64,000 bases of DNA from the NCBI GenBank assembly GCA_046351255.1, contig JAXLYU010000005.1:1274583-1338582 (forward strand). The letters are read 5' to 3'. The notes beneath the pieces are model-generated. The model made no database searches. It had not been told where the DNA came from and saw only the letters and a program-made list of their open reading frames with translations. The DNA comes from Labilithrix sp. GTDB taxonomy: Bacteria > Myxococcota_A > Polyangia > Polyangiales > Polyangiaceae. Position 1 is the first letter of the stretch. Each line of letters starts with the position of its first letter. Below are positions 4,694-51,709 of the stretch, piece after piece. Made by a program: the position numbers and the translations under genes.

Positions 4694-6056
4694 CGTGCTC
4701 GCGCCTCCGGTCGCTCGTGAAGGTCTCCGTCGTGGACTTGGTGACCACCTCGTAGAGGAGGGCGCGCTTGCCCTGCCGCTGGCGCAGGATGCGGCCGAGG
4801 CGCTGGACGTGCTCGCGCACGGAGCCCGAGCCCGAGAGCACCACCGCCACGTTCGCGTCCGGGACGTCGACGCCCTCGTTCAGCACCTTCGAGGTCGCGA
4901 CGGCGGTGTACTCGCCGCGCGCGAAGGCGCTCAGGATCTCGCTTCGCTCCGTCACCTTCGTCTGGTGCGTGATGACCGGCACGAGGTAGCGCCGCGCCAC
5001 GAGGTGCGCCGTCGCGTTGTCCTGCGTGAAGATGATCGTGCGATCGTTGCGGTGCACGTCGAGGAGGTGCTCGAGCCACACGAGCTTCGCGGTGGCGGCG
5101 AACGCGAGCTCGCGCTGGCGTCGGTACGCCTTCATCGCGCGGCGACCCTCCGGCGAGCGCGCCGCGCGCATGATGAACTCGCCGAAGCCGCGCGGGCTCG
5201 ACATGACGATGTGGTTCATGCCGATGAAGTCGCGGTAGATCTTGCGCTCTCGGTCGTGCTCGGCGCGCTCCTCCTCGGTGAGCTCGACCTCGACGCGCTC
5301 CGTCTCGTACTCGGCGAGGTACTCACCCGCGAGCTCGCCGATCTCGCGGCGGTACACCATCGGGCCGACGAGCTGATGGAACGCGGCCTCCATGCCGTCG
5401 GTTCGCTCCGGCGTCGCGGTGAGGCCGAGCCGGAACGGCGCGAGGCAGAGGCGCGCCGCGAGCGAGTAGCTCGGGCTCGGGAGGTGATGTACCTCGTCGA
5501 AGACGACCATCCCGAACTTCGCGCCGAAGTGCTCCATGTGGAGATGCGCGGAGTCGTAGGTCGTCACGGTGAGCGGCAGCACGGTGTGCTCGCCGCCACC
5601 GACGATACCGACGGGCACGCCGAACGTGGCGCGGAGCACGTCGTACCACTGGCGCACGAGCTCGAGGGTCGGCGCGACGACGAGCGAGCTCCGCTTCTTG
5701 TCGTCGATCGCCATCGTCGCGACCTGCGTCTTGCCAGCGCCGGTCGGCAGCACGACGACGCCGCGGCCGTGCGCCTTCTTCCACGCCGCGAGCGCCTCCG
5801 ACTGATACGGGCGCGGCTCGCGATGAACGAGCATGCCGTGCGGGAGCTCGGCGTACTGGCGCGCCTCGTCCTTGTATTCGATCCCGGCCTTGCGCAGCGC
5901 GAGCACGATCGGCGCGTACGCCACGGCGGGCGCACGATGGCAGCCAGTGCGTGCGTCCCAGCTCAGGTAGTCGGGCAGACGTGCGTCGTCCTTGTCCGCG
6001 CCTCTCAGCGCGAGCGTCCCGTTCTCGAAGGCGAGGATCACGATCGTGTGAGCCAC
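4680..6056 (-). CDS. XPB/ERCC3-like superfamily-2 DNA helicase
   Basis: Walker A VVLPTGAGKTQVA and DEAH-box motif II VVFDEVHHL are present. The N-terminal region resembles bacterial XPB homologs (PRPYQSEALAAW), and a helicase C domain is present (TSKVLNEGVDVP). Confidence 0.85.
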   Translation of the reverse strand: MAHTIVILAFENGTLALRGADKDDARLPDYLSWDARTGCHRAPAVAYAPIVLALRKAGIEYKDEARQYAELPHGMLVHREPRPYQSEALAAWKKAHGRGVVVLPTGAGKTQVATMAIDDKKRSSLVVAPTLELVRQWYDVLRATFGVPVGIVGGGEHTVLPLTVTTYDSAHLHMEHFGAKFGMVVFDEVHHLPSPSYSLAARLCLAPFRLGLTATPERTDGMEAAFHQLVGPMVYRREIGELAGEYLAEYETERVEVELTEEERAEHDRERKIYRDFIGMNHIVMSSPRGFGEFIMRAARSPEGRRAMKAYRRQRELAFAATAKLVWLEHLLDVHRNDRTIIFTQDNATAHLVARRYLVPVITHQTKVTERSEILSAFARGEYTAVATSKVLNEGVDVPDANVAVVLSGSGSVREHVQRLGRILRQRQGKRALLYEVVTKSTTETFTSDRRREHDAYR

Positions 6057-23521: not shown

Positions 23522-26515
23522 TTACCGTGCCAAGTGCGCGAGACGGCTCAGGCCTTCGGCGTTGTCCGGCTTCGGGTTCATGCCCGTCGTCCTCGGCGTT
23601 TTCGCGCTGGAACCGGCGTCCTTGCCGGCTCCGGACGTCTCGTCCGTCTTCATCTCGCCCTGCTGCGACTTGTAGAACGCGTCGTCCGCGCGATCCTGCT
23701 CCGTCTGCGCGGTCACGCTTGGTGCGGGCAGCATCATCTCCACCGCCGGCGGCTCCGCCTGGTTCTGCTTCGGCATGCCCATCGGGTGCGACGTGAAGTG
23801 CAGCACCGCCCAGGCCACCACGCCCGTCGCGGTGATGAAGGCCAGCATCGGCCACGCCTTGCGCCTGGGCGCGGGCGTCTCCGTCGGCATCTCTCCCTGG
23901 CTCGGATCGTCCGTCACCGCCGCGAATGGCGTGAGCTCCGCGGGGATGGGGAGGCCGTCCTCGTCCGTGCCCGGGACGATCGCCTCGCTGTGATAGACGT
24001 CGTCTTCGTCGTCGGCCACCGCGGGCGACGAGGAGGCATAGACCGTGTTCTCGACGACGGTCGGCTCACCGAGCGCGACGATCTGCTCCGCGGGCGGCGT
24101 GCCGGTCGCCTCGTAGAACGTCGGCGACGGCGTGAGCTGGCGCGGCTTCAACGCCGCCGGATCGACGATCATCGGCGCCGGCGAGTCGAAGGGGAACATG
24201 TCCTTGAGCATCTGCACCGGCGCGGGCGACGGTGAGCGATTCATCGCCTCGCGCAGGACCGCTTCCTCGACGGAGGCGGCCGGCGACGGGGCGGGCGAGG
24301 CGCAGACCGGCTCGGAGGCCGCGTCCGTGCAGGAGCTCATCGGCGGCGGCGTCACGCCCCGGATGGGCAGGTCGGCGCGCGTGTCGACGTGCGGGAGGAG
24401 GGCCTGGATCGCGGGCGTCAGCATGTCTTCGCCGCCCTGGCCCTCGATCGCGACGACGAGGCCGCGCGAGGCGAGGTCGCAGAGGATGTCGTCGAGGAGC
24501 GCCGCTTCGCAGCCGCCGTGGAGGACGAGCTCGCGGGGCGTCGCGCCGTTCGCGAGGCGGCGCGCGACGAGGCGCGCCTTCTCGGGCGTGGCCTTGAGGT
24601 AGTCGACGAGCGCGTGCTCGTCGAAGCGGATGCGCGCCACGGTGTTCATGCGCGAGCCGGTGAGGAGCGAGGTGGCGGCGCGCGCCTTCGCGATCGGCTT
24701 CGCGAGCTGCGACGCGAGGTTGCCCTCGAGCTCCGACTCGACGGCGGAGGTCGACGTGGTCACCGCGAAGCGACCCGCGCCGACGCCGAGCATCTGCGCG
24801 AGCATCGCCTTGCCCTTCACGAAGCCGCCCTCGGCGTCGGTGCGCGTGACGCGACGCGGAGCGCCGCTGCGCATCTCGACCTCGTAGAGGAAGCTCGCGT
24901 CGCGGATGGAGACGCGCGCGTCCGGGCGGGTCTCGCTCACCGCTTCGAGGAGCGTCTTGATGCTGACGCCGTCGAGGCGGCCGCGGACCTCGCCGTCCTC
25001 GCGGAGGCGCGTCTCGATGCGGGCGCGGCCGCGGAGCGCCTCGCGGACGCGTGCGATGATGGCGCGCGTGTCGCTCTCCTTGCGGACGTAGCCGGACGCG
25101 TTCGCGCCGAGCTCGCGCACGCGCTGGAGAAGGTCTTCCTTCCAGGAGAGCAGGATGACCGGCGTGTCGCGGAGCGCGACGTCGCGGCGGATGGCGCGGC
25201 AGAGCGAGAAGCCGTCGAGGTTCGGCATCAGGATGTCGCTGATGACGAGATCGGGCGACGACTCGTACGCGAGCTCGAGCGCCTTCTTGCCATCGAAGGC
25301 CTCGAGGACGTCGCAGCCCGCCGTCTTGAGGAGGTCGGCGAGGAACCAGACCACGGCCGGATCGTCGTCCGCGACGACGACGCGACGGCCATCGAGGCGA
25401 ACGTCCGCCGCGGCGCTCCGCTTCTGGCTGCCGGTGGAGGTCGAGCGGTCCGAGCGCGCAGGCTCGTGGAGGAGCAGCGCCGGCGTGATGGCGCCTTCGG
25501 GGCCGCCCGCGAAGCGGACCGCGCCGTCGGTGCGCGCGGTGACGACCTCGCGCACGCGGGCGATCGCGCCCCACATCGCGCCGAGCACCTCGGTGCCTTC
25601 GCCGAGGGCGATGCGACGCGTGCGCGCGGCGGGGTCGGCGCGGCCGACGATGGCCTCGCGCACCTCGTTGGCGAGGCGGTCCGCGAGCTCCTCGAGGGTC
25701 GGCTCGCCGATGACGGCGTGCGCGGTGAGCGTGCCGCGATCCGGCGAGAGCGTCTCCTCGCACATCTCGCGCAGCGCCGACTTGGTCATCGGCTTCGCCA
25801 TCGTCTTCGCGACGCCCATCGCGACGAAGCGCGAGGCCTCGCCGTGCTCCTGGAACGAGCCGAGGACGACGATCGGGACCGTCTCCGTGAGCGGATCGTC
25901 CATCAGCGCGTCGACGAGATCGATCGCGTTGGGCAGATCCGCGTCGAGGATGATGAGGTCGGGCTCCGTCGTGCGAACGAGGTCGTACGCGGTCGTGACG
26001 TCGGGCGTCGTCTCCGCCGTGAACGCGATCGTCGCCGCACGCGTGGTGTGCGGGTCGTGGCCGAGCAGCGCCTCCGCGATCTGGGGCGCACCGACGACGA
26101 GGACCTCGCGCTTCGGGAGCGACTTCACGTGGTCGTTCGCCTCCGCGCGGGAGGAGCGCGCGATGCCATCGCCCCAGGCGAGGGCGGGGAGGTCCTCGAC
26201 GAGCTGCTCGACCGCGTCGAGGTCGTGATCGTGCTCGAGCTTGGCGATGGTCTCGCCGAGGGCGCGATCCATCGCCTCGAACTTCATCATCTTCGCCGCG
26301 GAGGCGAGGCTGCCGAGCCGCTTCTTCAGGTCTGCGCGGGCGTTCGGGGTGTCCGACTTCACCGCCGCGAGCGCGATGCGGAGGTCTGCGACCTTCCGTC
26401 CGAGCCCGGCGACGAAGTCGGCGCGGGCACCGCCGAGGCGCGCCCCGTTTCCCGCGCCTTCGCGGTGATGGTCCTTGAGGCGATTCCCGCGGGCACTCGT
26501 GGCTGCAGAATGCAT
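23522..26515 (-). CDS. multidomain response regulator: two receiver (REC) domains + DUF4388 + C-terminal TM segment
   Basis: Two REC domains (VLVVGAPQ...LIILDADLP..VPIVVLG and RVVVADDDPAVVWFLADLL...DLVISDILMPNLDGFSL...). A DUF4388-like region follows (GRLDGVSIKTLLEAV), then a Pro/Ser-rich linker and a hydrophobic helix. Start taken at MHSAATS; the upstream extension conflicts with the divergent GNAT gene. Confidence 0.75.
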   Translation of the reverse strand: MHSAATSARGNRLKDHHREGAGNGARLGGARADFVAGLGRKVADLRIALAAVKSDTPNARADLKKRLGSLASAAKMMKFEAMDRALGETIAKLEHDHDLDAVEQLVEDLPALAWGDGIARSSRAEANDHVKSLPKREVLVVGAPQIAEALLGHDPHTTRAATIAFTAETTPDVTTAYDLVRTTEPDLIILDADLPNAIDLVDALMDDPLTETVPIVVLGSFQEHGEASRFVAMGVAKTMAKPMTKSALREMCEETLSPDRGTLTAHAVIGEPTLEELADRLANEVREAIVGRADPAARTRRIALGEGTEVLGAMWGAIARVREVVTARTDGAVRFAGGPEGAITPALLLHEPARSDRSTSTGSQKRSAAADVRLDGRRVVVADDDPAVVWFLADLLKTAGCDVLEAFDGKKALELAYESSPDLVISDILMPNLDGFSLCRAIRRDVALRDTPVILLSWKEDLLQRVRELGANASGYVRKESDTRAIIARVREALRGRARIETRLREDGEVRGRLDGVSIKTLLEAVSETRPDARVSIRDASFLYEVEMRSGAPRRVTRTDAEGGFVKGKAMLAQMLGVGAGRFAVTTSTSAVESELEGNLASQLAKPIAKARAATSLLTGSRMNTVARIRFDEHALVDYLKATPEKARLVARRLANGATPRELVLHGGCEAALLDDILCDLASRGLVVAIEGQGGEDMLTPAIQALLPHVDTRADLPIRGVTPPPMSSCTDAASEPVCASPAPSPAASVEEAVLREAMNRSPSPAPVQMLKDMFPFDSPAPMIVDPAALKPRQLTPSPTFYEATGTPPAEQIVALGEPTVVENTVYASSSPAVADDEDDVYHSEAIVPGTDEDGLPIPAELTPFAAVTDDPSQGEMPTETPAPRRKAWPMLAFITATGVVAWAVLHFTSHPMGMPKQNQAEPPAVEMMLPAPSVTAQTEQDRADDAFYKSQQGEMKTDETSGAGKDAGSSAKTPRTTGMNPKPDNAEGLSRLAHLAR

Positions 26516-26530
26516 TGATCCGCGGGTAAC

Positions 26531-27712
26531 ATGCGGTCTGTGGACGGGCCCAATTTCCGGCAAGCGCACGAGCGCGATCGCGAACGACTGATCGAGCTCG
26601 AAGGGCAGGGTTACCCGTTCGAGAGCGGCCAGCTCGAGCTGGAACGCGCGATTTTCCACAATCCGCTCGGGGAGTTACGAGATTTTCACGTCGGCACCCT
26701 CGACGACGACATCGTCTGTCAGGCGTTCCTCTTTCGCCTGCGCGCGTACTTTGGCGGAGCGCGGGTGAAGATGGGCGGGATCGCGTCGGTGGCGGTGGCG
26801 GCGGAGGCCCGCGGGCGCGGGGCGGCGAGTGGGCTGATGGACCACCTCCACTCCCTCGCTCGGCGACGGGGCATGCCCATCACGATGCTCTACGCGTTCC
26901 GTCAGGGCTTCTACACGCGCCTCGGCTACGCGCCGTGCTCGTCGCGTAAGCGCCTCGTGATCGATGCGCGAGCGATCCCGCGCTCGTGGAACGCGCCCGT
27001 GCGGCGCGCGCGCGGCGCGGATCGAAGGCTCATCGAGCGCCTTCATCGCGAGGTCGCGCGCACGATGACGGGCGTGCACGAGCGACCGAAGGCGCTCTGG
27101 GATCTGAGGCTCGCGCGGCCGACGCGCATCATCCTCGTGACGGACGGCGGCTACCTCATGTTCGAGATCCGCCAGGAGGTGCATCACACGGAGGCCGTCG
27201 CCGTGGTCGACGAGCTCGTCGCCACGACCCTCGACGCCCGTCGCGCGCTGCTCGGCGCGCTCGGGCGCATGCGCGATCAGGTCTCGTCGATCGAGTACGA
27301 GGTCGCGGAGAACGATCCGATCGAGCTCGCGCTGATCGATCCCGACGGGCACCGGTACGGCGACCAGGAGGTGGAGCACGACCTCGGCCGTCTCGTCGGC
27401 GGTCCGCTCGTGCGGCTCACCGATGTGGAGCTCGGCCTCACCGCCCGCGGGTATCACGCCGATGGCGCGTTCACGGTCGCGCTCGACGATCGGCACCTCG
27501 GCGTGCAGGTGAAGGGGGGCGTGGCCGCGCTCGGAAGGCCGCGCGGGCCGGAGCTCGCGACGGGCCGCGCGACGCTCGGAGCCCTGCTTTATGGCGGTCT
27601 CGGCCTCCGCGAGGCGGTGCGCCTCGGCCTCGCGCGCATCGACGCGAAGGCTCTCGCGCGGGTGGATTCCATCCTCCGGCTGCCTCCGATCCTGCCGCTG
27701 GATCCGTTCTGA
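26531..27712 (+). CDS. GNAT N-acetyltransferase, Eis-like (GNAT + SCP2-like C-terminal domain)
   Basis: Acetyl-CoA-binding motif A (IASVAVAAEARGRGAASGLMDHL) and a tyrosine-containing region (YAFRQGFYTRLGY). Approx 390 aa, as in the Eis family. Confidence 0.8.
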   Translation: MRSVDGPNFRQAHERDRERLIELEGQGYPFESGQLELERAIFHNPLGELRDFHVGTLDDDIVCQAFLFRLRAYFGGARVKMGGIASVAVAAEARGRGAASGLMDHLHSLARRRGMPITMLYAFRQGFYTRLGYAPCSSRKRLVIDARAIPRSWNAPVRRARGADRRLIERLHREVARTMTGVHERPKALWDLRLARPTRIILVTDGGYLMFEIRQEVHHTEAVAVVDELVATTLDARRALLGALGRMRDQVSSIEYEVAENDPIELALIDPDGHRYGDQEVEHDLGRLVGGPLVRLTDVELGLTARGYHADGAFTVALDDRHLGVQVKGGVAALGRPRGPELATGRATLGALLYGGLGLREAVRLGLARIDAKALARVDSILRLPPILPLDPF

Positions 27713-41316: not shown

Positions 41317-41982
41317 ATGCGTTCCAAGACGCTCCTTGGCCTGCTGGCTCTCGTGGGATCCACGTTCGTCGTCGCGTGTGCGGCGACGCCCGCGCCGGAC
41401 TCGTTCGACAACGGGCAGCCCTCTTCCGCGTCGCGCTCCAACAAGAAGAGCGCCGCCGACGACACGGAAGGAGACACCGGCAACGCCACGCCGCCCGCGT
41501 CGACGGGGACGATGCCCGACCGCCCGACGCCAGCGGAGCCGACCGCGCCGCCGGTGCAGGCGAGCGACACGGTGTGGACCGGCACGCTCGCGAAGACGGT
41601 GACCTCGAAGTTCGGCGGCTCTCCCTACTGCGAGTACCAGACTCACTTCGAGAACATGAACGTGAAGGTCGTCATCGGCCCCGACGGCAAGGTGAAGTCG
41701 GCGACCGTCACCGGCAAGGCGGTAGAGGAGTCGCTCAACGGCTGTCCCAACTCGCCGATCCCGGCGAACCTCCACGACTACTCGCTCACGACCGCCGCGG
41801 ATGGAACCACCTTCTCCATCGACGGCGGCGGTAGCGCGGCGGAGCCGCACGCGAAGCTCGACGCGGACGTCTCTGCCGCGGGCGCGAGCGGCAGCATCTC
41901 GCTCAAGATCCAGCGCAACGATCAGACCGCGCCGCTCGTGTGGACGATCAACGCCGACGTCCCGCTCACGAAGCAGCCGTGA
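41317..41982 (+). CDS. lipoprotein (hypothetical), paralog family A
   Basis: Lipobox FVVAC. Shares the FGGSPYCEYQTHFENMNVKVVIGPDGKV core with 19903..21182. Confidence 0.75.
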   Translation: MRSKTLLGLLALVGSTFVVACAATPAPDSFDNGQPSSASRSNKKSAADDTEGDTGNATPPASTGTMPDRPTPAEPTAPPVQASDTVWTGTLAKTVTSKFGGSPYCEYQTHFENMNVKVVIGPDGKVKSATVTGKAVEESLNGCPNSPIPANLHDYSLTTAADGTTFSIDGGGSAAEPHAKLDADVSAAGASGSISLKIQRNDQTAPLVWTINADVPLTKQP

Positions 41983-43477
41983 CGTTGACGTGATGTACCT
42001 CGAGTCGCTCGACCACGACCTCGAGGAAGCTCCTCGGATCCTCGCGTGAGCGCGGCTGAAAGTCGAGGCGATCGCCCTCGAGCGTGAGGACGCCCATCGG
42101 ACCGTCGAGCACGAGCCGCTCGAGCTGCTTGCCGCGCGCGTCGGAGCGGATGCCGAGCACGAGCTCCGGCTCGGCGTCGATCTCGAAGTCGACGATGGCC
42201 GGCCACCGCTCGAGGAGCGCGAGGATCTCGTCGGCGTTCACGAAGAAGTTGTCGTCGCTCTCGGCGCGCACCGAGAGCTTTCGCGCGGCGGGGAAGACCG
42301 CCTGTGGCCCCTCCTCGAGGCTCGCGCAGTAGACCCAGTGCGAGGTCACGAACCCGACGGAGAGCCAGGGCATCGGCTGCCCTCGGTTCCGTAGCCGCGC
42401 GAGGTCCTCGACCGGATTCACTCCCGTCACGTGACGTAGGTTGCGCGCCGCGTCCGACCACAGGAGATCCGGCGCGCTGTCGTCCCACGCGCTCTTCGCG
42501 CTCACGTCGAGATGCGTGAGGGTCGACCACTCCCGCGCCCCGATCGACTTCGCGCCGGCGGCGCCGCGAACGTAGCGGCCGCGGGCGACGAAGCCGCGCT
42601 CGAACACCACTCCTTGCTTCTGCAGCGCGGGCTCGAGCGGGCCGAGCCATACGCGTCCCCACTGCTGAATGAGCTTCTTCTCCGCGGGGCTCGGCTCCGT
42701 GTCCGTGCCATGCCGTGCGAGCTGCATCGCGATGAGCTCGCCGCGTGGATCGCCGCGCTGCTGGAGCAGATCCGCGAGCACGGCACGCGCCTCGTCGTCC
42801 GTGGGGTCGTCGTAGATGCGCGTGAAGAGCGCCTCCTCGTCGGCGGCGGTGCCGGCGCTCGGCTTCGGCGCGCGCACGAGCTTCGCGATCGCAGCGAGCG
42901 TCAGCGTGTCGTCGCGATCGAGGTCGGGCACCTTTCGCTTCGCGAGCTGCGCCGCAGCGGCGACGAGCGGTCTCCAGGTCTGGACGCCGTACGCTCGGTT
43001 CGCGGCGGACTGGTTCCTCGGCTCCGTGAGCGCGACGAGGAAGGGCGCGAGCCGCACGTCTCCCGTGCGTTCGATGAGCCGGACGACGCGATGGAAGAAC
43101 GGCGCCCGGCTCGTGGCGCGCACCGGCGGCGACTCGAGCCACTTCTTCGCCGCCGTCGCCATGCGCGGGTCGGCCGGCATCGCGAGGAGCACGTCGATCT
43201 GAAGATGGCGATCCGTGCTGTCCGAGATCGCCTCGAGGAGGCGTCCCATCACGGCGGCCCGCTTCGAGCTCGCCGCCTCGCCCCACGCCGCCCGGGCGGA
43301 CGTGCCGCCGGTGGCGCGGATCGGCGTCTCCTTCGCGGTGAGCGTGGCGCTCAGCAGCTCGATCGCGTCCGCGATCGCCGGATGCCGCTTGCTCGCGCGC
43401 CAGGCGTCGAGCAGCGCTTCGAGCGCCGGCTCCGGATGTGTATTCTGCAAGTGATGGAGCGCGTCGCGCAGGCTCAC
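41966..43477 (-). CDS. TIGR02996-like repeat-companion domain protein, paralog 2
   Basis: Contains DDPTDDEARAVLADLLQQRGDPRGELIAMQ, the TIGR02996 signature. GTG start in a GTGA overlap with the paralog 1 stop. The listed 1019-aa ORF is an out-of-frame upstream extension. Confidence 0.7.
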   Translation of the reverse strand: MSLRDALHHLQNTHPEPALEALLDAWRASKRHPAIADAIELLSATLTAKETPIRATGGTSARAAWGEAASSKRAAVMGRLLEAISDSTDRHLQIDVLLAMPADPRMATAAKKWLESPPVRATSRAPFFHRVVRLIERTGDVRLAPFLVALTEPRNQSAANRAYGVQTWRPLVAAAAQLAKRKVPDLDRDDTLTLAAIAKLVRAPKPSAGTAADEEALFTRIYDDPTDDEARAVLADLLQQRGDPRGELIAMQLARHGTDTEPSPAEKKLIQQWGRVWLGPLEPALQKQGVVFERGFVARGRYVRGAAGAKSIGAREWSTLTHLDVSAKSAWDDSAPDLLWSDAARNLRHVTGVNPVEDLARLRNRGQPMPWLSVGFVTSHWVYCASLEEGPQAVFPAARKLSVRAESDDNFFVNADEILALLERWPAIVDFEIDAEPELVLGIRSDARGKQLERLVLDGPMGVLTLEGDRLDFQPRSREDPRSFLEVVVERLEVHHVNVTAAS

Positions 43478-45162
43478 GAGAAGCTCTTCCCCTGCACGTC
43501 GAGCGGGACGCCCGCGTCCTTCGCCGCGTCGACGATTGGCTTCATCGAGGCTCGTGCGCTCTTCATCACGAGGGTGGGACCGTCCTCGAGCGCGGCCTTG
43601 CCGTCGCCGTGAACGGCGACGCTCGTGGGCTCGACGGCGCGCATCAGCCGGACCACCTCCGCCACCGACGTGGTGGTCAGACGGCGGAGCGCGATCGTCA
43701 GCTTTCGTCTCTCGACCGTCACCGTCATCGCCGGATCGATCACCACGAGGCGGGCCAGCTTCTCCCCGCGCTCGCTCGCGAGGATGGTCGAGACGTGCCG
43801 GGTCTCGGCTCCGATCGTGAACGCCTCGATGTTCGGCCACGCCGAGAGGATGCCGAGGATCGCCTCCGTCGGGACGGTGAAGGCATGCGACTCGACCTGC
43901 ATGACGACCAGCGCTCGCGCCGCGGCAAAGAGGGACCCCGCGCCCTTCGCGATCGGCTCGAGGTAGTCCCAGCCCCAGGCGCGCCAGCCGACCGTCTCCC
44001 ACGGGAGCTCGCCTCGCGCGGAGAGCGTCGGGAGATCGGCCGGCGAGAGCCCCGTCACGTGTCGCACGTGGCGAAGATGCGGGGACCGGAAGAGCGCGCT
44101 GCTGCCCGCGACGTAGCGGCTGGCGCGCGAGACGTCGAGGTGGGTCACGGTCATCCACTCCTTCGCGCCCGCGGCCTCGCCGCCGGCGAAGCGACACCGG
44201 GCGAGGAAGCCCCGCTCGTACTCGACGCCCTCCTTGAGGAGCACATCGTCGAGCGGACCGAGCCAGGTGCGGCCCCATTGCTGGACGAGCTTTCGCTCGG
44301 CGGGGGTCGCGGGCCGGTCCGTGCCGTGTCGCCCCATCTGCAGCGCGATGAATTCGCCGCGCGGATCGCCGCGCTGCAGGAGCAGGTCCGCGAGGACGGC
44401 GCGCGGCTCGTCGTCGGTCGGATCGGCGTAGATGCGCGCGTAGAGGTCGTCCTCGTCGGCGCTCGTGCCGCCGGTCGCCTTCGGCGGCGGCTCCGCGAGC
44501 CGCGCCTCGACGCGCGAGGCCGCCGCGATCGCGTCCGGCCCGAGCGGGAGGGGCGCGGGCAGCTGCTCGAAGCGCTCGGCGAGCTCGGTCAGGGCGACCC
44601 ACGAACGTAGCCCGAAGGCGTTCACCGACGTCGGTCGCGCGGTCGACGTGCTGATGCGCGCGATGACGGGAGCGAGCCGCGCATCGCGTGTGTGCTCGAT
44701 GAGCTTCCAGAGCGCGTTGAAGAACCCGGGCCGGTTCGAGCCCTGGACCGGCGGCGCCTCGATCCACGCACGCGCCGCGCTCCCGATGCGTGGATCGGCG
44801 GGCCAGGCGAGGAGCGCCTCGAGGCGCTTCACGCGGTCGATCCCGTCGGGCAGCGCCTCGAGCAGGCGCCCGAGCGCCGCGGGCCGCCGCGCGTCGCAGG
44901 CCTGGTACCACGCCGTCTTCGCGGAGGTGCTGCCCACGGCGACGATCGGCTTCTCCGTCTCCGTGACGATCGCGGACAGGCGATCGATCGCGTCCGCGAT
45001 GCGCCCATCGCCGCAGGCGCGCCATGCGTCGAGCAGCGAGGCGAGCGCCGGTGCGTGCTCCGCGCGCTCGAGACGGTCGAGCGCCGCGTTCAGTGCGGGG
45101 AGAGGATCAGAGGGGGTCCGCTTCGCCTGAGCCATTGCCGCCACCGCTGCCGCCCAGCGCAT
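43474..45162 (-). CDS. TIGR02996-like repeat-companion domain protein, paralog 1
   Basis: DDLYARIYADPTDDEPRAVLADLLLQRGDPRGEFIALQ; colinear with paralog 2 over the full length (LLDAWRA...IADAI..LSA...). Alternative start 45135. Confidence 0.7.
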   Translation of the reverse strand: MRWAAAVAAMAQAKRTPSDPLPALNAALDRLERAEHAPALASLLDAWRACGDGRIADAIDRLSAIVTETEKPIVAVGSTSAKTAWYQACDARRPAALGRLLEALPDGIDRVKRLEALLAWPADPRIGSAARAWIEAPPVQGSNRPGFFNALWKLIEHTRDARLAPVIARISTSTARPTSVNAFGLRSWVALTELAERFEQLPAPLPLGPDAIAAASRVEARLAEPPPKATGGTSADEDDLYARIYADPTDDEPRAVLADLLLQRGDPRGEFIALQMGRHGTDRPATPAERKLVQQWGRTWLGPLDDVLLKEGVEYERGFLARCRFAGGEAAGAKEWMTVTHLDVSRASRYVAGSSALFRSPHLRHVRHVTGLSPADLPTLSARGELPWETVGWRAWGWDYLEPIAKGAGSLFAAARALVVMQVESHAFTVPTEAILGILSAWPNIEAFTIGAETRHVSTILASERGEKLARLVVIDPAMTVTVERRKLTIALRRLTTTSVAEVVRLMRAVEPTSVAVHGDGKAALEDGPTLVMKSARASMKPIVDAAKDAGVPLDVQGKSFS

Positions 45163-46090
45163 CCACGAAGAAGCGGAGGCCGATGGAGATCATGGTAGCC
45201 GGATTGTCGCCGACGATGTCGCGCCGGCCGGCGACCTCGACCGAGAAGCGCTTGTCGACGTACCCCGCGCCGAGCGAGAGCGCGTGGTTGCGCGTGCCGT
45301 CGTCGTAGCGATAGCCGGCGCGCACGGGGATGTGGTCGGCGAGGAGGACCTCGGCGCCCACCATCGCGCGAGCACGGGCCTTCTGGTACGTCGTGAAGTC
45401 GATCAGCGAGTCCGCCTCGACGGACACGGTCTGGTTGGACCAGCCGAGGCCACCCGCGAGGGCGGTCGGCATGAGGCCGATGCCGGGCGCGGTGAGGTTT
45501 CGCCCGCTCACTCCGAAGCGCAGGCCTTCCGTGATCGCGATCGCGGCGCCGGCGTCGAACGTGAACTGGCTCGTCAGCGGATCGTCCGGCTTGCCGTCGG
45601 ACGCGAGTGACGCACCGAAGGGGCCGCGCGCCACCGCCTGCGTCGCGCGGAGGTAGCGTCCCGTCATCCCGAGGTGGAATCGATCGCCGAGCGGGTACGC
45701 GAGCGTGAGTCGAAGGTCCGTCCACTGCCGCTTGATCCCGTCTGGATCCATCTGCGACCACGTGCCGCCAAAGCCGCCCGCGAGCTTGCTCGTGCTCGAG
45801 TCGACCACGGCGCCGCCGTAGCTCTGCCGCCGCGCCTCGGGACTGAACGCCGCAAGGGCCTCGAGGTGGTAAACGCGGTAAAGCGGGAGATTTGCGGGAT
45901 TCGCGAAGATCGCCGACGTGGAGCCGCCCCACACCTGGTTGGCGCCGCCCATCGCGACGGTGCGCGGGTGCTGCACCTCGCCGAGGTCGTATCCCTGTTC
46001 GATCGAGGTCGTGGAGGGCGAAGCGTGCACGCGCGTCTCGGCGCCGAAGACGGCGCCCGCACAGAGCAAAGCGACGCCGGTTTTCTTCAT
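45107..46090 (-). CDS. putative outer-membrane beta-barrel protein
   Basis: Signal peptide MKKTGVALLCAGAVFGA. Alternating hydrophobic beta-strand-like segments with aromatic residues near the C-terminus (ISIGLRFF). The 3' end overlaps the next gene's possible start. Confidence 0.55.
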   Translation of the reverse strand: MKKTGVALLCAGAVFGAETRVHASPSTTSIEQGYDLGEVQHPRTVAMGGANQVWGGSTSAIFANPANLPLYRVYHLEALAAFSPEARRQSYGGAVVDSSTSKLAGGFGGTWSQMDPDGIKRQWTDLRLTLAYPLGDRFHLGMTGRYLRATQAVARGPFGASLASDGKPDDPLTSQFTFDAGAAIAITEGLRFGVSGRNLTAPGIGLMPTALAGGLGWSNQTVSVEADSLIDFTTYQKARARAMVGAEVLLADHIPVRAGYRYDDGTRNHALSLGAGYVDKRFSVEVAGRRDIVGDNPATMISIGLRFFVDALGGSGGGNGSGEADPL

Positions 46091-46602
46091 GAGGCGGTGC
46101 ACCGCTGCCGACCTAACCAATTCGTATGGGGCCCGTACAAGTTTTCGGCAAAACCGCGCGGGCGCTCGATCCGTTCCTCGCTCGAGAAATTCGGGCGATC
46201 GTCGACTCTTGACACGATTTCCGCCGACGATCCGCGGCGTTGTCATTTCGTGTCCGGCCGATGACAGGCCGATTACGAAAAGACGTCGGGCACTTATCAA
46301 CACCCCTCCGAAATTGCATGCGAAGCGCCTGCATTTTGGAGGTGGTCTACAAGCAATAAAACGTAAGGCGTTCGATAACTTGCGACTTCTTTTGCGATGG
46401 TCGTTGTCGTTCTCGAATCGACGGTGCTAGCTCCATCTTTCCCGTTACGACGGGGCTTCGAGCTGGGCGGTTCAGTGGCTGGCGGGTGGCTTTGCGTTCG
46501 AGCGCGCCTTCCGACTGCTGAGGGGGAATTTTGTGAAGCGATAGGGCGGGCTGTCCTCCACAGCCCTGTGGAGAAGTTGTGCGCGGAGTGGAACGAATCG
46601 AG
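46091..46602. promoter_or_regulatory. candidate oriC / dnaA promoter region with DnaA-box-like motifs
   Basis: 512-bp non-coding stretch, visibly less GC-rich than its flanks. TTATCAACA at 46294-46302; inverted pair TCCTCCACA / TGTGGAGAA at 46553-46576 just upstream of the dnaA start; an AT-rich patch at 46351-46368; TTGACA at 46210. Confidence 0.45.
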
Positions 46603-48039
46603 ATGCAGCACGAGGCTCTCTGGAACGAAGCTGTCGCATTCACGCGGGCGAAGTCGCCTGCGAGCTTCGAGCAGTGGTTCTCCGGTGTGCAGTACGACGG
46701 CATGACCGACGGCGTCGTGAGCCTCCGCGCCCGCGACGAGTTCGTCCGGGAATGGGTCGATCAACATTTTCTCCCGACGTTGATCGACTACCTCCGTAGC
46801 CAGACGGGTTGGAGCGTTCAAATCGCGTGGAGCATCGGTGGTGACCTCGACCGTCCCGTGTCCGGCCCTGTGGCTCCGGCGCTGGGCGACGATGTGCCGT
46901 CCGGTATGCGCGCACGTGCAAACGGAACAAGTGGGATTGCGCCCCAAATGATCACCGAAGAAGCACCTGCCTCGCGCCGTACACAGTCTTCGCAGATGAA
47001 GGCACCGCCGCTCGAGGGTCTGAACCCGAAGTACACGTTCGCGAACTTCGTGGTCGGGCCGTCGAACCAGCTCGCGCATGCGGCCGCCATCGGCGCGGCC
47101 GGCGGCGGGGGGCCGCGTCATAACCCGCTGTTCTTGTGCGGCGGCACGGGCCTCGGCAAGACGCACCTCGTCCATGCCGTCGCGCACCGGATCCGCGCCG
47201 AGCGCCCCCAGTCGCGCATCCTGTACGTGTCGGCGGAGAAGTTCGTGAACGAGTTCGTGCAGTCGCTGCAGGAGAACCGCATGAGCGAGTTCCGCAGCCG
47301 CTACCGCGAGCGTTGCGACCTCCTCCTCGTCGACGACATCCAGTTCCTCGCCTCGAAGACGCAGACGCAGGAAGAGTTCTTCCACGCGTTCAACGCGCTC
47401 CACCAGGCGGACAAGCAGATCATCGTCACGAGCGACAAGTACCCCCAGCAGCTCGAGCGCATGGAGGAGCGGCTCGTGTCGCGCTTCTCGTGGGGCCTCG
47501 TCGCCGACATCCAGGGCCCCGAGCTCGAGACGCGCGTCGCCATCCTGCGGAAGAAGGCGCAGATGGAGCAGATCGACCTCGCCGACGAGGTCGTGCTCTA
47601 CCTCGCGCAGACGATCCGCTCGAACGTCCGCGAGCTCGAGGGCACCCTCATCCGCCTCGCCGCGAAGACCTCGCTCCTCGGCCGCGCCATCGACCTCGAG
47701 TTCGCGCGTCAGGAGCTCGCCGCCACGTCGAGCACGAAGCCGAACGAGGCGGGCGTCGACGACATCCAGCGCGTCGTCTGCCACCACTTCAAGCTCCGCA
47801 CGTCCGACCTCCTCTCGAAGGACCGCCACAAGAGCATCGCCTTCGCCCGTCACGTCGCGATGTACCTCTGCAAGCAACGCCTCAAGTGCAGCTTCCCGGA
47901 GCTCGGTCGCGCGTTCGGCAACCGCGATCACACGACCGTCATGAGCGCCGTGCGCAAGGTCGAGCACCTCCGCTCGACGGACCCCGAGGTCCGCGCGCAC
48001 CTCGAGGCGATCGAGCGGAAGCTCGGCACCGGCGACTGA
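46603..48039 (+). CDS. dnaA: chromosomal replication initiator protein DnaA
   Basis: Domain III/IV hallmarks: LNPKYTFANFVVGPSNQLAHAAA, Walker A GGTGLGKTHL, Walker B LLLVDDIQF, sensor motifs and a C-terminal DNA-binding domain (KDRHKSIAFARHVAMYLCK). Confidence 0.95.
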   Translation: MQHEALWNEAVAFTRAKSPASFEQWFSGVQYDGMTDGVVSLRARDEFVREWVDQHFLPTLIDYLRSQTGWSVQIAWSIGGDLDRPVSGPVAPALGDDVPSGMRARANGTSGIAPQMITEEAPASRRTQSSQMKAPPLEGLNPKYTFANFVVGPSNQLAHAAAIGAAGGGGPRHNPLFLCGGTGLGKTHLVHAVAHRIRAERPQSRILYVSAEKFVNEFVQSLQENRMSEFRSRYRERCDLLLVDDIQFLASKTQTQEEFFHAFNALHQADKQIIVTSDKYPQQLERMEERLVSRFSWGLVADIQGPELETRVAILRKKAQMEQIDLADEVVLYLAQTIRSNVRELEGTLIRLAAKTSLLGRAIDLEFARQELAATSSTKPNEAGVDDIQRVVCHHFKLRTSDLLSKDRHKSIAFARHVAMYLCKQRLKCSFPELGRAFGNRDHTTVMSAVRKVEHLRSTDPEVRAHLEAIERKLGTGD

Positions 48040-48075
48040 CTCGCTCCTCCGCCCGCGGACCGATATGCTCGGGAT

Positions 48076-48777
48076 GTGGGCGGTCGGCGCTGGTCTGTCA
48101 TCGCAACCGCGCTGCTGCTGGCCGGCGCCTGCGGGCTCCCGAGCGCGGACGAGTTCGCGTCGGGATCGCCCGACGGCGGCTCGAGCCTGGGCGACGTGGC
48201 GCGCGCCGATGGCGGCGTCACGAAGGACGCGGAGACGCTCACGCCGAACCCGACCGACGGCGGTACGGACGGGGCGTCGGCGGTCGACTCGTCGACCCCG
48301 ATCGTCAATCTGCTCGCGAAGAACAACGCCGACTTCGAGGCCGGCTGCACCGACTCTGGCGGGTACGAGGCCGTGATCTCCGGCTCGAACGTCGCGCGCT
48401 CCGGGGCGCAGGCGTGCAACGTGTGTCGGGGCCCGAACGCGACGACCGAGATCTGGTCGATCGACAACGGATACGCGGGCGAGCCCGCGGCCGGGCAGGA
48501 GTATCGCTCCACCGTCTGGGTGCGCCGTCCCCCGGGCAGCACCGACGCCCTGTACGTCACGCTCGTTCTGCGGTCGCAGACGAAATCCTACGCGAGGATA
48601 GAGGTGAGCGAGTCCGCGCCGCTGCTCCTCACGGACGAGTGGCAGATGCTCTCTGTCACCTTCACGCTCACGAAGCCCGCGAACAACATGGACACGTACA
48701 CCTACGCGGAGAACGGCGCCGGGCTCACCACCGCCTGCTTCCTGATCGACGACTACGTCGTGTGGCGGACCCGGTGA
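48076..48777 (+). CDS. lipoprotein (hypothetical), paralog family B
   Basis: Lipobox LLLAGAC...LPSADEF; colinear with 51738..52418 (ACNVCRG vs ACQACRK; CFLIDDYVV vs CFVIDEVSV). Confidence 0.75.
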   Translation: MGGRRWSVIATALLLAGACGLPSADEFASGSPDGGSSLGDVARADGGVTKDAETLTPNPTDGGTDGASAVDSSTPIVNLLAKNNADFEAGCTDSGGYEAVISGSNVARSGAQACNVCRGPNATTEIWSIDNGYAGEPAAGQEYRSTVWVRRPPGSTDALYVTLVLRSQTKSYARIEVSESAPLLLTDEWQMLSVTFTLTKPANNMDTYTYAENGAGLTTACFLIDDYVVWRTR

Positions 48778-48797: not shown

Positions 48798-49658
48798 TCA
48801 GCTCGCCTGGAAGAACATGAAGAGCTTCGTGAGCATGAAGTCGGCGATGAGGATCGCGATCGAGACCGCCACGACCGTGCGCGTGGTCGACAGGCCGACG
48901 CCTTCGGTGCCGCCGCTCGTCCGCAGGCCGAAGTGGCAGCCGACGATCGAGATGATGTAGCCAAAAAATGGGGTCTTGGCGACGCCGACGAGGAAGTCGG
49001 AGATACGCGTGACCTCGAGTGACGACGAGATGAAGAACGTGGGGGTGATGTCGAACTGCCCCCAGCACACGATGATGCCGCCGATGACGCCGAGCGCGAG
49101 CGCGTAGACGCTCAGGATGGGCATCACGAGGATCGCGGCGAGCATGCGCGGGAGGACGAGCTTCTTCGCGGGATCGGCGCCGAGCGCGCGGATCGCGTCG
49201 ACCTGCTCCGTCACGTTCATCGCGCCGACCTCGGCCGCCATGCCGCTCCCGATGCGTCCGCCGACGATGATGGCGGTCAGGGTCGGCGCGAGCTCGCGGC
49301 AGAACGAGAGCACGACGACGCGCGGGATGTACTCGAGGCCGCCGAAGCGACGGAGACCGAACGCGAACTGGATCGTCATGACCATGCCGATGAACACGGA
49401 GGTCACGGTGACGATGCCCATGGAGCGGACGCCGAGCGACTCCATCTGCTGGATGGTGGAGCGGATCTCGAGCGGCCGCCGGAAGATCGATCGCACGGTG
49501 CGCGAGGTGAGGAGGGCGACCTCGCCGAGCTCTTCGATGAACCGGCGCCAGCGCGCGAGATGAAACTCGAAGAACGACGGCTCGGGCGGCGGAGGCGGGA
49601 GCGAGAAGCCTCCCGGTCGAAGCGACTCGCGCCCGCGGTCGGTGGGCGGCGGATTCAC
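48798..49658 (-). CDS. mlaE: MlaE-family ABC transporter permease
   Basis: Typical MlaE N-terminal region (LEIRSTIQQMESLGVRSMGIVT) and five TM helices. GTG start in a GTGA overlap with the upstream lipoprotein stop. Confidence 0.8.
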   Translation of the reverse strand: MNPPPTDRGRESLRPGGFSLPPPPPEPSFFEFHLARWRRFIEELGEVALLTSRTVRSIFRRPLEIRSTIQQMESLGVRSMGIVTVTSVFIGMVMTIQFAFGLRRFGGLEYIPRVVVLSFCRELAPTLTAIIVGGRIGSGMAAEVGAMNVTEQVDAIRALGADPAKKLVLPRMLAAILVMPILSVYALALGVIGGIIVCWGQFDITPTFFISSSLEVTRISDFLVGVAKTPFFGYIISIVGCHFGLRTSGGTEGVGLSTTRTVVAVSIAILIADFMLTKLFMFFQAS

Positions 49659-50174
49659 TTCACGACCCCAGAGCCGGGCAGCGTGCGAAAGCCGCGGACC
49701 CACGCCTCGTACCCGTCCTCGCCGTCGCGCTTCGCGCCCACGCGCGCGAAGTCGTAGGTGCAGCCGTCCTTCGACAGGACGAACACGTCGAGGTTCATCG
49801 GCACGCCGTCCCATTTGGCGACGAGCGTCGTGTGCAGTGCCTCACGCCCGTCGAACGGCTCCGTCTTCTGCTCGCGGATCTCGCGCTCGCTGGCGCCGAT
49901 GAGCAGCTGATTGGTGAGCGCGACGAGCGGCGTGCGCGCGTCGGCGGAGCGGCACCGCGCATTGACGAGGATGGACGCGCCATGCGCGTCGTCCTGGTAT
50001 GCGAGGGAGGCGTCGCGCACGTCGAGGCGAGACCAGCCGTTCGGCACCGCAGGGACGGTGAACGCGACCGGTCCCTGGCGAAAAACCTGGCCGTCGAACG
50101 ACGCAGAAGCGCCTCCGCACGCGAAAAAGGCGATGCAGAGCGCAAATCGAGGGTTAGATTCGTGGCTCCGCATA
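49655..50174 (-). CDS. small lipoprotein, possibly ABC-transport auxiliary component
   Basis: Lipobox AFFAC; 173 aa; translationally coupled to mlaE. Its start codon is back-to-back with the cysS start (CATATG). Confidence 0.6.
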
Positions 50175-51709
50175 TGCCGATCCGTCTCTACAATACGCTC
50201 ACCCAGAAGGTTGAAGACTTCGTCCCGCTCGAACCGGGCAAGGTGAAGCTCTACGTCTGCGGCATCACGGTTTACGACCTCGCTCATGCCGGTCACGGCC
50301 GCACCTATACGACGTTCGACGTCCTGGTGCGGTTTCTCCGGGCTCGCGGCTTCGAGGTCACCCACTGCCAGAACGTCACGGACGTCGATGACAAGATCGT
50401 GAACCGCGCCAAGGAGCGTGGCGAGGAGCCCCTCGCCCTCTCGAAGCGGATGGGCGAGCTCGCCGACGAGCACCTCCGCGCCATCGGCTGCCTCAAGCCC
50501 ACGATGATGCCGCGCGTCTCGACGACCATCGACGGCATCGCCAAGATCACGAAGACGCTCATCGACAAGGAGCACGCCTACGTCTCGGAGACCCCGAACG
50601 GCAAGGACGTCTACTACTCCGTCCGGAGCTTCAAGGACTACGCGAAGCTCTCGCGGCGCAACATCGACGAGATGCGCGCCGGCGCGAGCGAGCGCCTCGC
50701 CGAGAACTCCGGCGAGGTGAAGAAGGATCCGCTCGACTTCGCGCTGTGGAAGTCACAGCCGAAGGACGCGTTCGGCTTCGAGTCGCCGTGGGGACACGGT
50801 CGTCCTGGCTGGCACATCGAGTGCTCGGCCATGGCGAACGAGAACCTCGGCGAGCAGATCGACATCCACGGAGGCGGGATGGATCTCATCTTTCCGCATC
50901 ACGAGAACGAGGTCGCGCAGTCGGAGGCCGCGAACGGCAAGCAGTTCGCGCGCTACTGGATGCACGGAGGCTTTCTCGAGATCGACAAGGAGAAGATGGC
51001 GAAGTCGCTCGGCAACTTCGTCACCATCAAGGACGTCCTCGAGAAGAACGATCCCGAGGCCTACCGTTACTTCATCCTCGGCACGCACTACCGCGGTCCG
51101 CTCTCGTTCGACGTCGACAAGTCCGACGCGAACGGCCGCGTGACGTTTCCCGGCCTCGACGAGGCGGAGCGGCGTGTGGACTACTTGTATTCAGCACGCG
51201 ATGCTCTCGCCGCCCTCGCGGGCGACATCGAGCCAGCGGAGTCGAACGTGCTCCAGGGCCAGCAGACGGTCGTTCTGGAAGCGAAGGAGAAGGTCCTCGA
51301 GGCCCTCGATCGCGACCTCAACACGCCGGTTGCGCTCAGCGTCCTCGCCGACCTCGGCAAGGCGATGAACGAGATCGCGATGCAGGCTCCGAAGATGAAG
51401 AAGGATCCGGCAAAGCACGAAGCGGTGCGGAAGCTCGCGGCCCTGGCGGTGAAATCCCTCCGGGACGCGACCGCTCCGCTGGGCCTGATGCAGGCGACGT
51501 CGGAGGAGTACGCCGCGCGGACGAAGGCGCGAAGGCTCGAGATTCGTGGGCTCGAGGCGTCGCAGATCGACGCGAAGGTCGCGGAGCGAGCGGAGGCTCG
51601 CAAGGCGAAGGACTTCGCGAAGAGCGACGCCATCCGCAAGGAGCTCGCCGAGCTCGGGGTCGAGGTGTTCGACGCCGGTGACACGAGCAGCTGGAAGATC
51701 GGGATCTAG
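50174..51709 (+). CDS. cysS: cysteinyl-tRNA synthetase
   Basis: N-terminus MPIRLYNTLTQKVEDF...YVCGITVYDLAHAGHGRTY (HIGH-type motif) and KMAKSLGN (KMSKS). Zinc-binding Cys and His residues are present. Confidence 0.95.
   Translation: MPIRLYNTLTQKVEDFVPLEPGKVKLYVCGITVYDLAHAGHGRTYTTFDVLVRFLRARGFEVTHCQNVTDVDDKIVNRAKERGEEPLALSKRMGELADEHLRAIGCLKPTMMPRVSTTIDGIAKITKTLIDKEHAYVSETPNGKDVYYSVRSFKDYAKLSRRNIDEMRAGASERLAENSGEVKKDPLDFALWKSQPKDAFGFESPWGHGRPGWHIECSAMANENLGEQIDIHGGGMDLIFPHHENEVAQSEAANGKQFARYWMHGGFLEIDKEKMAKSLGNFVTIKDVLEKNDPEAYRYFILGTHYRGPLSFDVDKSDANGRVTFPGLDEAERRVDYLYSARDALAALAGDIEPAESNVLQGQQTVVLEAKEKVLEALDRDLNTPVALSVLADLGKAMNEIAMQAPKMKKDPAKHEAVRKLAALAVKSLRDATAPLGLMQATSEEYAARTKARRLEIRGLEASQIDAKVAERAEARKAKDFAKSDAIRKELAELGVEVFDAGDTSSWKIGI

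Follow-up and report, generated by a model that had tools for sequence, protein, structure and literature searches.

An orphan dnaA gene of Labilithrix sp. probably preceded by a conserved DnaA operator, with the replication origin most likely next to dnaN

The dnaA gene and its upstream spacer

We analysed a 64-kb stretch of contig JAXLYU010000005.1 of Labilithrix sp. (the window), in which the gene for the chromosomal replication initiator DnaA is preceded by a long intergenic spacer that a preliminary description had proposed to be an autoregulatory or replication origin (oriC) element. The gene corresponds to the open reading frame 46579/46603..48039 on the plus strand, and its assignment as dnaA is upheld by matches to the Pfam profiles DnaA_N (5e-8), Bac_DnaA (2e-65) and Bac_DnaA_C (3e-28), which represent domain I, the AAA+ domain III and the helix-turn-helix domain IV, respectively, and all pass the curated Pfam cut-offs. 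The closest relatives of the protein, drawn from a collection with one genome per species, are DnaA proteins of Polyangiales myxobacteria, with identities of 81% to a Labilithrix sp. metagenome-assembled genome (MAG), 67-76% to Polyangiaceae MAGs, 66% to Sorangium cellulosum So ce56, and 65% to Minicystis rosea. Alignment with the starts of these relatives places the start codon at ATG 46603 (MQHEALW...), yielding a protein of 478 aa (46603..48039, plus strand), and not at GTG 46579, which sits within the conserved non-coding TGTG motif of a DnaA box described below (box C). In a public metagenome, the exact product is annotated as 486 aa from GTG 46579 (ENA contig k141_409345); look-ups of the exact protein yielded only a metagenome contig of 5.3 kb, whose sequence is identical to that of the window.

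Counted from ATG 46603, the upstream spacer (46091-46602) is 512 bp long and, as originally described, AT-richer than its surroundings, with a GC content of 58% against 69.6% for the window. Of the 12 spacers in the window that are 120 bp or longer, it has the lowest GC content, with a minimum of 44-50% at 46291-46440, and it is one of only three places in the window with 30-mers of at most 37% GC. The corresponding spacers of the relatives are all long (approximately 390-1680 bp). Both properties speak for the possibility that the spacer is the chromosomal oriC, in which binding of DnaA to the boxes would lead to opening of the AT-rich tract (approximately 46300-46440). AT-richness was also considered as a discriminator of origins and was rejected, because spacers upstream of dnaA and those upstream of dnaN are not separated by their AT content.

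A DnaA-box module conserved in front of dnaA

Three DnaA boxes are located 17-49 nt before ATG 46603. Box A (TCCTCCACA; 46554-46562, plus strand) has 2 mismatches to the consensus TTATCCACA, whereas box B (46567-46575, minus strand; TTCTCCACA on the minus strand, corresponding to TGTGGAGAA on the plus strand) has a single mismatch and is the best-conserved element of the spacer. Together, boxes A and B form a perfect palindrome, CTCCACAG-CC-CTGTGGAG, with two 8-nt arms, the left one contributed by box A, and a 2-nt gap, ending 28 nt before the ATG. Box C is degenerate (46578-46586, minus strand; TGTGCGCGG when read on the plus strand), lies 11 bp after box B and overlaps GTG 46579. A further DnaA-box-like 9-mer with 1 mismatch, TTATCAACA, is found at 46294-46302 on the plus strand. 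The motifs quoted in the preliminary description, namely, TTATCAACA and the inverted pair TCCTCCACA/TGTGGAGAA, are all present.

With three box-like 9-mers (at most 2 mismatches) and one degenerate box, the spacer is enriched in DnaA boxes compared to the window. Only 4 sites in the 64 kb match TTATCCACA with at most 1 mismatch, and 2 of them are in the dnaA spacer; similarly, a weight matrix derived from the clade has 9 matches in the window, 3 of which fall into the spacer, a concentration that would also be consistent with an origin. No DnaA boxes were found in the gap following dnaA (48040-48075) and no cluster of TTATCCCCA-type boxes, which have been reported for Sorangium, was detected in the window. 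The best-scoring box-like 9-mer outside of the dnaA spacer, TTTTCCACA (26652-26660), is located between a response-regulator gene (23522-26659, minus strand) and a GNAT acetyltransferase gene (approximately 26531-27712, plus strand); it is a single site and probably occurs by chance.

Comparison with the relatives set the box module apart from the rest of the spacer. In an alignment of the window with relatives whose DnaA is 67-81% identical (alignment A1), the module is the only invariant block, and across the relatives the spacer is barely alignable except for the block T[TC]NTCCACAG-N2-3-TGTGGAnAA-C[CT]-TGTG. The box B 9-mer, with one mismatch allowed, is present in the spacers of 19 of the 22 relatives, compared to 2.4 expected from shuffled sequences. 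An orthologous plus-strand box A was recognized in the loci L001-L004, L014-L016, L018-L020, L023, L024, L027-L030, and L060 (relatives' loci are numbered with the prefix L), and box C has its counterpart in a TGTG or TGTGG conserved 2 bp after box B. By contrast with this module, TTATCAACA is not conserved and is aligned with non-box sequence in the relatives, for example, with CTTACCATC in L002, which speaks against an origin in the spacer.

The arrangement of the boxes varies between lineages. In Labilithrix- and Polyangiaceae-like loci, box A (plus strand) faces box B (minus strand) across a gap of 2-4 bp and is accompanied by the weaker box C, 11 bp after box B; loci of Minicystis, Polyangium and Sandaracinaceae-like bacteria carry only the tandem B-C pair, TGTGGAnAA-N2-TGTGGAnnn. 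Over the 10-20 kb of the relatives' loci, DnaA boxes are rare and concentrated within approximately 400 bp before dnaA, and the module itself lies 45-400 bp upstream of the gene, including in lineages in which dnaA and dnaN are linked. For instance, tandem pairs are found at positions -58 to -65 relative to the dnaA start in L035, L039, L040, and L042, with dnaN following dnaA in L039 and L040. Relatives from Polyangium and Minicystis have three consensus boxes upstream of dnaA, which could again be read in favor of an origin at this place.

The perfect palindrome of boxes A and B, with its two 8-nt arms and 2-nt gap, raises the question of whether it is a DnaA site at all: a dimeric regulator unrelated to DnaA might use it as its operator, or, given that it folds as a 7-bp hairpin in the predicted dnaA leader, it might be an RNA structure. 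The half-sites of the relatives, however, converge on the full 9-mer consensus TTATCCACA, the gap varies between 2 and 4 bp, and several lineages have direct instead of inverted copies. A gap of changing length, box pairs that are inverted in some lineages and direct in others, and the match to the full 9-mer point to DnaA itself and not to a dimeric palindrome-binding regulator. The hairpin was ruled out because its fold is no more stable than those of shuffled sequences (z = +0.64), and the spacer has no match in Rfam. Recognition of the palindrome by something other than DnaA is therefore very unlikely.

An uncultured relative, L028, displays a second group of boxes. Its dnaA is followed by a 410-bp spacer with 4-5 boxes in the same orientation (L028:11900-12105), two of which are perfect TTATCCACA copies, and the cluster is followed by convergent dnaK and grpE genes, with no dnaN. 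The cluster may be a relic of a dnaA-dnaN origin region or a dnaK promoter controlled by DnaA.

Origin-type features around dnaA

The window was searched for features by which origins are commonly recognized. Pfam scans of the called genes revealed no rpmH, rnpA, yidC, mnmG, rsmG, parAB, recF, or gyrB in the window, and a hidden Markov model (HMM) of DnaN built from the dnaA-dnaN loci of Bacillales had no match in any frame of the whole 64 kb. Accordingly, the earlier observation that rpmH-rnpA upstream and dnaN-recF-gyrB downstream are missing holds true for 46 kb upstream and 16 kb downstream of dnaA, and the lack of origin marker genes over this span is a point against an origin at the locus. 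A dnaA without rpmH-rnpA and dnaN-recF-gyrB is a lineage trait, published for S. cellulosum (PMC2650636, PMC8538405), and not a peculiarity of this locus.

The basal unwinding system (BUS) was searched for with the published rule, which requires a DnaA box with at most 2 mismatches, a spacer of 0-16 bp, at least 3 DnaA-trios of the form NAN and an adjacent AT-rich element (PMC8287927). The box-spacer-trio search of the region 45991-46700 returned no match even at 3 trios, whereas under the same rule 5 trios were found in each of the positive controls, the dnaA-dnaN spacers of L031, L032, L033, L037, and L039. Unlike in a BUS, the boxes of the window spacer are oriented towards one another and lie right beside the coding sequence, and there is no run of NAN repeats. 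An nhmmer profile of the core of the dnaN-proximal module described below had no match in the window at E<=10, and an origin in the spacer would thus share no similarity with that conserved core.

Gene orientation changes at dnaA, and the preliminary description had taken this as consistent with divergent replication. The flip is real, with dnaA and the following lipoprotein gene on the plus strand and the genes at 41966-46090 on the minus strand, although three genes were called there rather than the four initially counted. Its proposed meaning did not hold up: among the 53 genes called in the window on the basis of third-position GC, there are 21 orientation changes, of which the one at dnaA is just one, and coding sequence is split evenly between the strands (21.1 versus 22.3 kb to the left of dnaA, 7.8 versus 7.7 kb to the right). 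Since flips are ubiquitous and the strands are evenly used, the flip at dnaA carries no information.

Nucleotide skew was separated into a transcription-linked and a strand-independent part, giving an orientation-corrected skew at third codon positions (GC3 skew). To either side of dnaA in the window, the corrected GC3 skew has a positive value (left, +0.031±0.011; right, +0.047±0.018), so that no sign change at dnaA was observed, although the power of this comparison is low in the clade. When applied to Bacillales as a control, the method detected a large switch, from -0.12 to +0.10. Skew, both raw and corrected for orientation, was examined around dnaA in approximately 30 loci of the relatives and around three orphan dnaN loci, and the Polyangia values obtained in the same way were +0.047±0.016 for loci with linked dnaA and dnaN and +0.019±0.018 for Polyangiaceae-like loci. 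The Polyangia signal over 10 kb is too weak, and skew therefore carries little weight; local skew cannot place the origin in Polyangia, and the constant sign and the absence of strand bias count weakly here against an origin upstream of dnaA. Third codon positions are C-rich on the coding strand both in the window and in the Polyangia loci (GC3 skew of approximately -0.10 to -0.19). This bias, far above the replication-linked skew, probably explains why classical GC-skew plots have failed in these genomes.

An origin-like module in front of dnaN

Six Sandaracinaceae-like loci (L031, L032, L033, L037, L039, and L040) have dnaN directly after dnaA. The dnaA-dnaN spacers of L031 (7369-7473), L032 (7945-8050), L033 (12586-12685), L037 (7580-7679), and L039 (11464-11569) contain a textbook basal unwinding module approximately 95-135 bp before dnaN. 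It consists of tandem boxes TCATCCACA/CAATCCACA, a 5-nt spacer, the trio run TAA GAC GAC GAA GAA, and a stretch rich in AT that includes AGATCT. The L040 spacer can be aligned at this position too but fails the strict trio rule.

A search of a representative library and a second search with a DnaN profile led to five loci in which dnaN-recF-gyrB occurs without dnaA, namely, one in a Polyangiaceae MAG, two on long metagenome scaffolds, and one each in the complete genomes of Pendulispora rubella (CP089983) and Sandaracinus amylolyticus (CP011125). In the latter two, dnaN is located at 12.15 of 13.6 Mb and at 9.90 of 10.33 Mb, respectively. All five orphan dnaN genes are directly preceded by a homologous block (L082:9625-9700, L083:9905-9985, L084:9910-9990, L085:9920-9995, and L086:9860-9930), composed of a box, a degenerate second box with CACAG at its end, CCCTA..GAC, either AGATCT or GATC, and a stretch rich in AT. 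Hence, the BUS (PMC8287927, PMC6669920), which has its textbook form in the Sandaracinaceae-like dnaA-dnaN spacers, has a degenerate counterpart before the orphan dnaN genes and is absent from the window spacer. The nhmmer core profile recovered the held-out dnaN locus L036 with an E value of 2e-5; its other matches were the six training spacers, and no match at E<=10 was obtained in more than 40 dnaA loci outside of these dnaA-dnaN spacers. A third search for DnaN homologs yielded no Sorangium or Labilithrix DnaN by name. The gene order at the orphan loci is dnaN-recF-gyrB(-x-clpB), with ccmF-type genes upstream in four of the five.

L039 has both features, the unwinding module before dnaN and the tandem pair at approximately -64 before dnaA. 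The co-occurrence implies that the dnaA-upstream module is separate from the origin module. If the same dnaA-upstream module coexists with a textbook unwinding module downstream of dnaA, it is not well explained as an origin, and we consider it unlikely that the window spacer is the chromosomal oriC, even though the competing dnaN-adjacent location has itself been deduced from sequence. In the initial proposal of an autoregulatory or oriC element, it is thus the autoregulatory part that is well supported as a probable function, given that the box module is kept before dnaA across the class; the oriC part is not supported, in view of the missing unwinding module, the lack of homology to the dnaN core, the absence of a skew change or strand bias and the non-conservation of TTATCAACA.

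With boxes on both sides of dnaA, L039 resembles the bipartite origins of Bacillus subtilis (incAB/incC) and Helicobacter pylori (oriC1/oriC2; PMC3479198), which likewise have a box cluster upstream of dnaA. The module of the window could accordingly be regarded as one half of such an origin or as an origin-accessory site comparable to incA/B of B. subtilis or oriC1 of H. pylori; in this lineage, it would have come to control DnaA availability on its own, either by titrating the protein or in a datA/DARS-like manner. The 4-5 direct consensus boxes that L028 keeps after dnaA without dnaN show that clusters can outlast rearrangement. This scenario is nonetheless quite improbable. In contrast to bipartite origins, the window has no downstream sub-region, as the lipoprotein gene begins after a 36-bp gap devoid of boxes and no dnaN is present; furthermore, a titration locus would be expected to have more than two or three boxes, the module is kept throughout the family even where dnaA is unlinked, so that proximity to an origin is not needed, and its constant place before the dnaA start codon is most simply explained by transcriptional control.

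A dnaN-adjacent origin has been proposed for a member of the same order-level group. The authors of the S. cellulosum So ce56 genome found no origin by skew, and Gao and Zhang subsequently applied Ori-Finder, with TTATCCCCC boxes and Z-curves, to the whole chromosome and placed the predicted oriC at 11.355 Mb, where it is flanked by a kinase gene and dnaN and is far from dnaA at position 1 (PMC2650636); this location was repeated in a 2021 review (PMC8538405). Similar to the window, So ce56 (DnaA 66% identical) has a dnaA without dnaN-recF-gyrB downstream and no clear skew inversion at dnaA, but the prediction there was made on a complete genome, whereas ours starts from a 64-kb window without the dnaN locus. 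The comparative data presented here provide sequence-level support for the Ori-Finder prediction in Sorangium. By analogy, the most likely site of the replication origin of Labilithrix sp. is beside dnaN, in another part of the chromosome; a rearrangement would have parted dnaA from dnaN-recF-gyrB, with the origin staying with dnaN.

Regulation of dnaA

Because the module is present also in lineages in which dnaN still follows dnaA, and because only the box module is kept in the spacer, the pattern fits a dnaA operator. We conclude that the locus is an orphan dnaA that probably has a conserved DnaA operator for autoregulation, and that its spacer most likely carries conserved DnaA binding sites for self-regulation. 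In the proposed mechanism, DnaA would bind the head-to-head boxes A and B, 28-50 nt before the ATG, and thereby repress its own transcription, with the degenerate box C, one helical turn beyond them, as a putative third site of the module.

Autoregulation of dnaA through DnaA boxes in its promoter is established in Escherichia coli, B. subtilis, Vibrio harveyi, Streptomyces lividans, and mycobacteria (PMC8203912). As in these autoregulated promoters (for example, dnaAp1/p2 of E. coli), consensus-type boxes are located between the promoter region and the dnaA start and their orthologous position is kept; the expected shared mechanism is repression by DnaA, which, like the binding itself and the position of the promoter, we infer here from sequence patterns. 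Unlike in those systems, the boxes of the window form a head-to-head pair with a third box one helical turn away, are degenerate, and are probably situated in a leader of approximately 160 nt.

Two other conserved elements were found in the spacer. In element E2 (46404..46433, plus strand), a -35-like TTGTCG is separated by 18 nt from an extended -10-like TGcTAGCT; its motif GGTGCTAGC, with one mismatch allowed, is present in 15 of the 22 relatives (2.4 expected), in which a -35-like TTGAAC or TGGACG is followed 17-18 nt later by GGTGCTA[GC]CT. E2, with an AT-rich tract (46330-46400) directly upstream of it, can reasonably be proposed as the dnaA promoter. In that case, the boxes would be at approximately +115 to +145 in the leader and would act as a roadblock, and the AT-rich tract would represent DNA upstream of the promoter, which dnaA shares with the divergent gene for the outer-membrane protein, rather than an unwinding element. 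Element E1 (CTCTTGACA; 46206..46214, plus strand) is likewise present in 15 of the 22 relatives, compared to 1.8 expected, and is separated from E2 by 215-219 bp in 8 of the 9 loci carrying both, with poorly conserved sequence in between. Consensus folding of the E1-E2 interval revealed no consensus RNA structure and, together with the empty Rfam scan of the spacer, led us to reject a structured RNA in the spacer. A terminator scan produced three terminator-like matches, near the chance expectation.

More speculatively, the three-box module and the AT-rich spacer of the Labilithrix/Polyangiaceae lineage could constitute a functional replication-control locus. It might be an additional or relocated origin, or a site that titrates or reactivates DnaA and so links dnaA expression to an origin located far away, near dnaN. 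We regard this as improbable; if true, the spacing of approximately 216 bp between E1 and E2 would reflect a phased nucleoprotein complex.

Several observations weigh against an autoregulatory operator at dnaA combined with an origin at dnaN. The boxes of the window are degenerate, with 2, 1 and 5 mismatches, and weaker than those of most relatives, and a simple scan of the spacer for the sigma-70 consensus found no promoter. The spacer is both long and the most AT-rich of the window, and origins upstream of dnaA exist in other phyla. On the side of dnaN, the trio repeats at the orphan loci are degenerate and fail the strict published rule, and no recognizable skew switch was seen around the three orphan dnaN genes examined, the switch being weak even where dnaA and dnaN are linked. 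Finally, the oriC site in this genome is extrapolated from the relatives and from the in silico prediction for Sorangium.

Annotators often place oriC beside dnaA by default, a shortcut that is probably wrong for these very large myxobacterial genomes. While the current understanding of replication initiation is unchanged and our results are mainly a clarification, they describe a conserved module next to dnaN, with boxes, trio-like repeats, AGATCT and a stretch rich in AT, as well as a probable three-box dnaA operator and a candidate promoter.

Neighboring genes and other features of the window

Upstream of the spacer, the minus-strand gene 45107..46090 encodes a putative outer-membrane beta-barrel protein, with a weak match to Pfam OMP_b-brl (E value of 8e-6; 26.5 bits versus the curated cut-off of 28.7). 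An ortholog is found upstream of dnaA on the opposite strand in approximately 36 of 43 Polyangia loci, and this divergent neighbor has been kept throughout the Polyangia (L002-L043) irrespective of whether dnaN follows dnaA. We know of no functional link between the beta-barrel gene and replication.

On the other side, dnaA is separated by 36 bp (48040-48075) from a gene for a putative lipoprotein with a lipobox-like LLAGAC (48076-48777, plus strand), followed by genes for MlaE (48798-49814, minus strand; identified with Pfam) and CysS. The succession of a lipoprotein and an mla-type permease had been noted before and is correct, the permease gene being on the minus strand. Relative to L003, L004, L015, and L020, in which cysS is read towards dnaA and mlaE in the same direction as dnaA, the mlaE-cysS block (48798-51709) is inverted, which indicates a local inversion with a predicted breakpoint just after dnaA.

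Elsewhere in the window, a gene with a DUF790 (Bax1-type) domain and an adjacent gene for an XPB/ERCC3-like helicase with an XPB damage-recognition domain (3500-6056, minus strand) form an XPB-Bax1-type pair.

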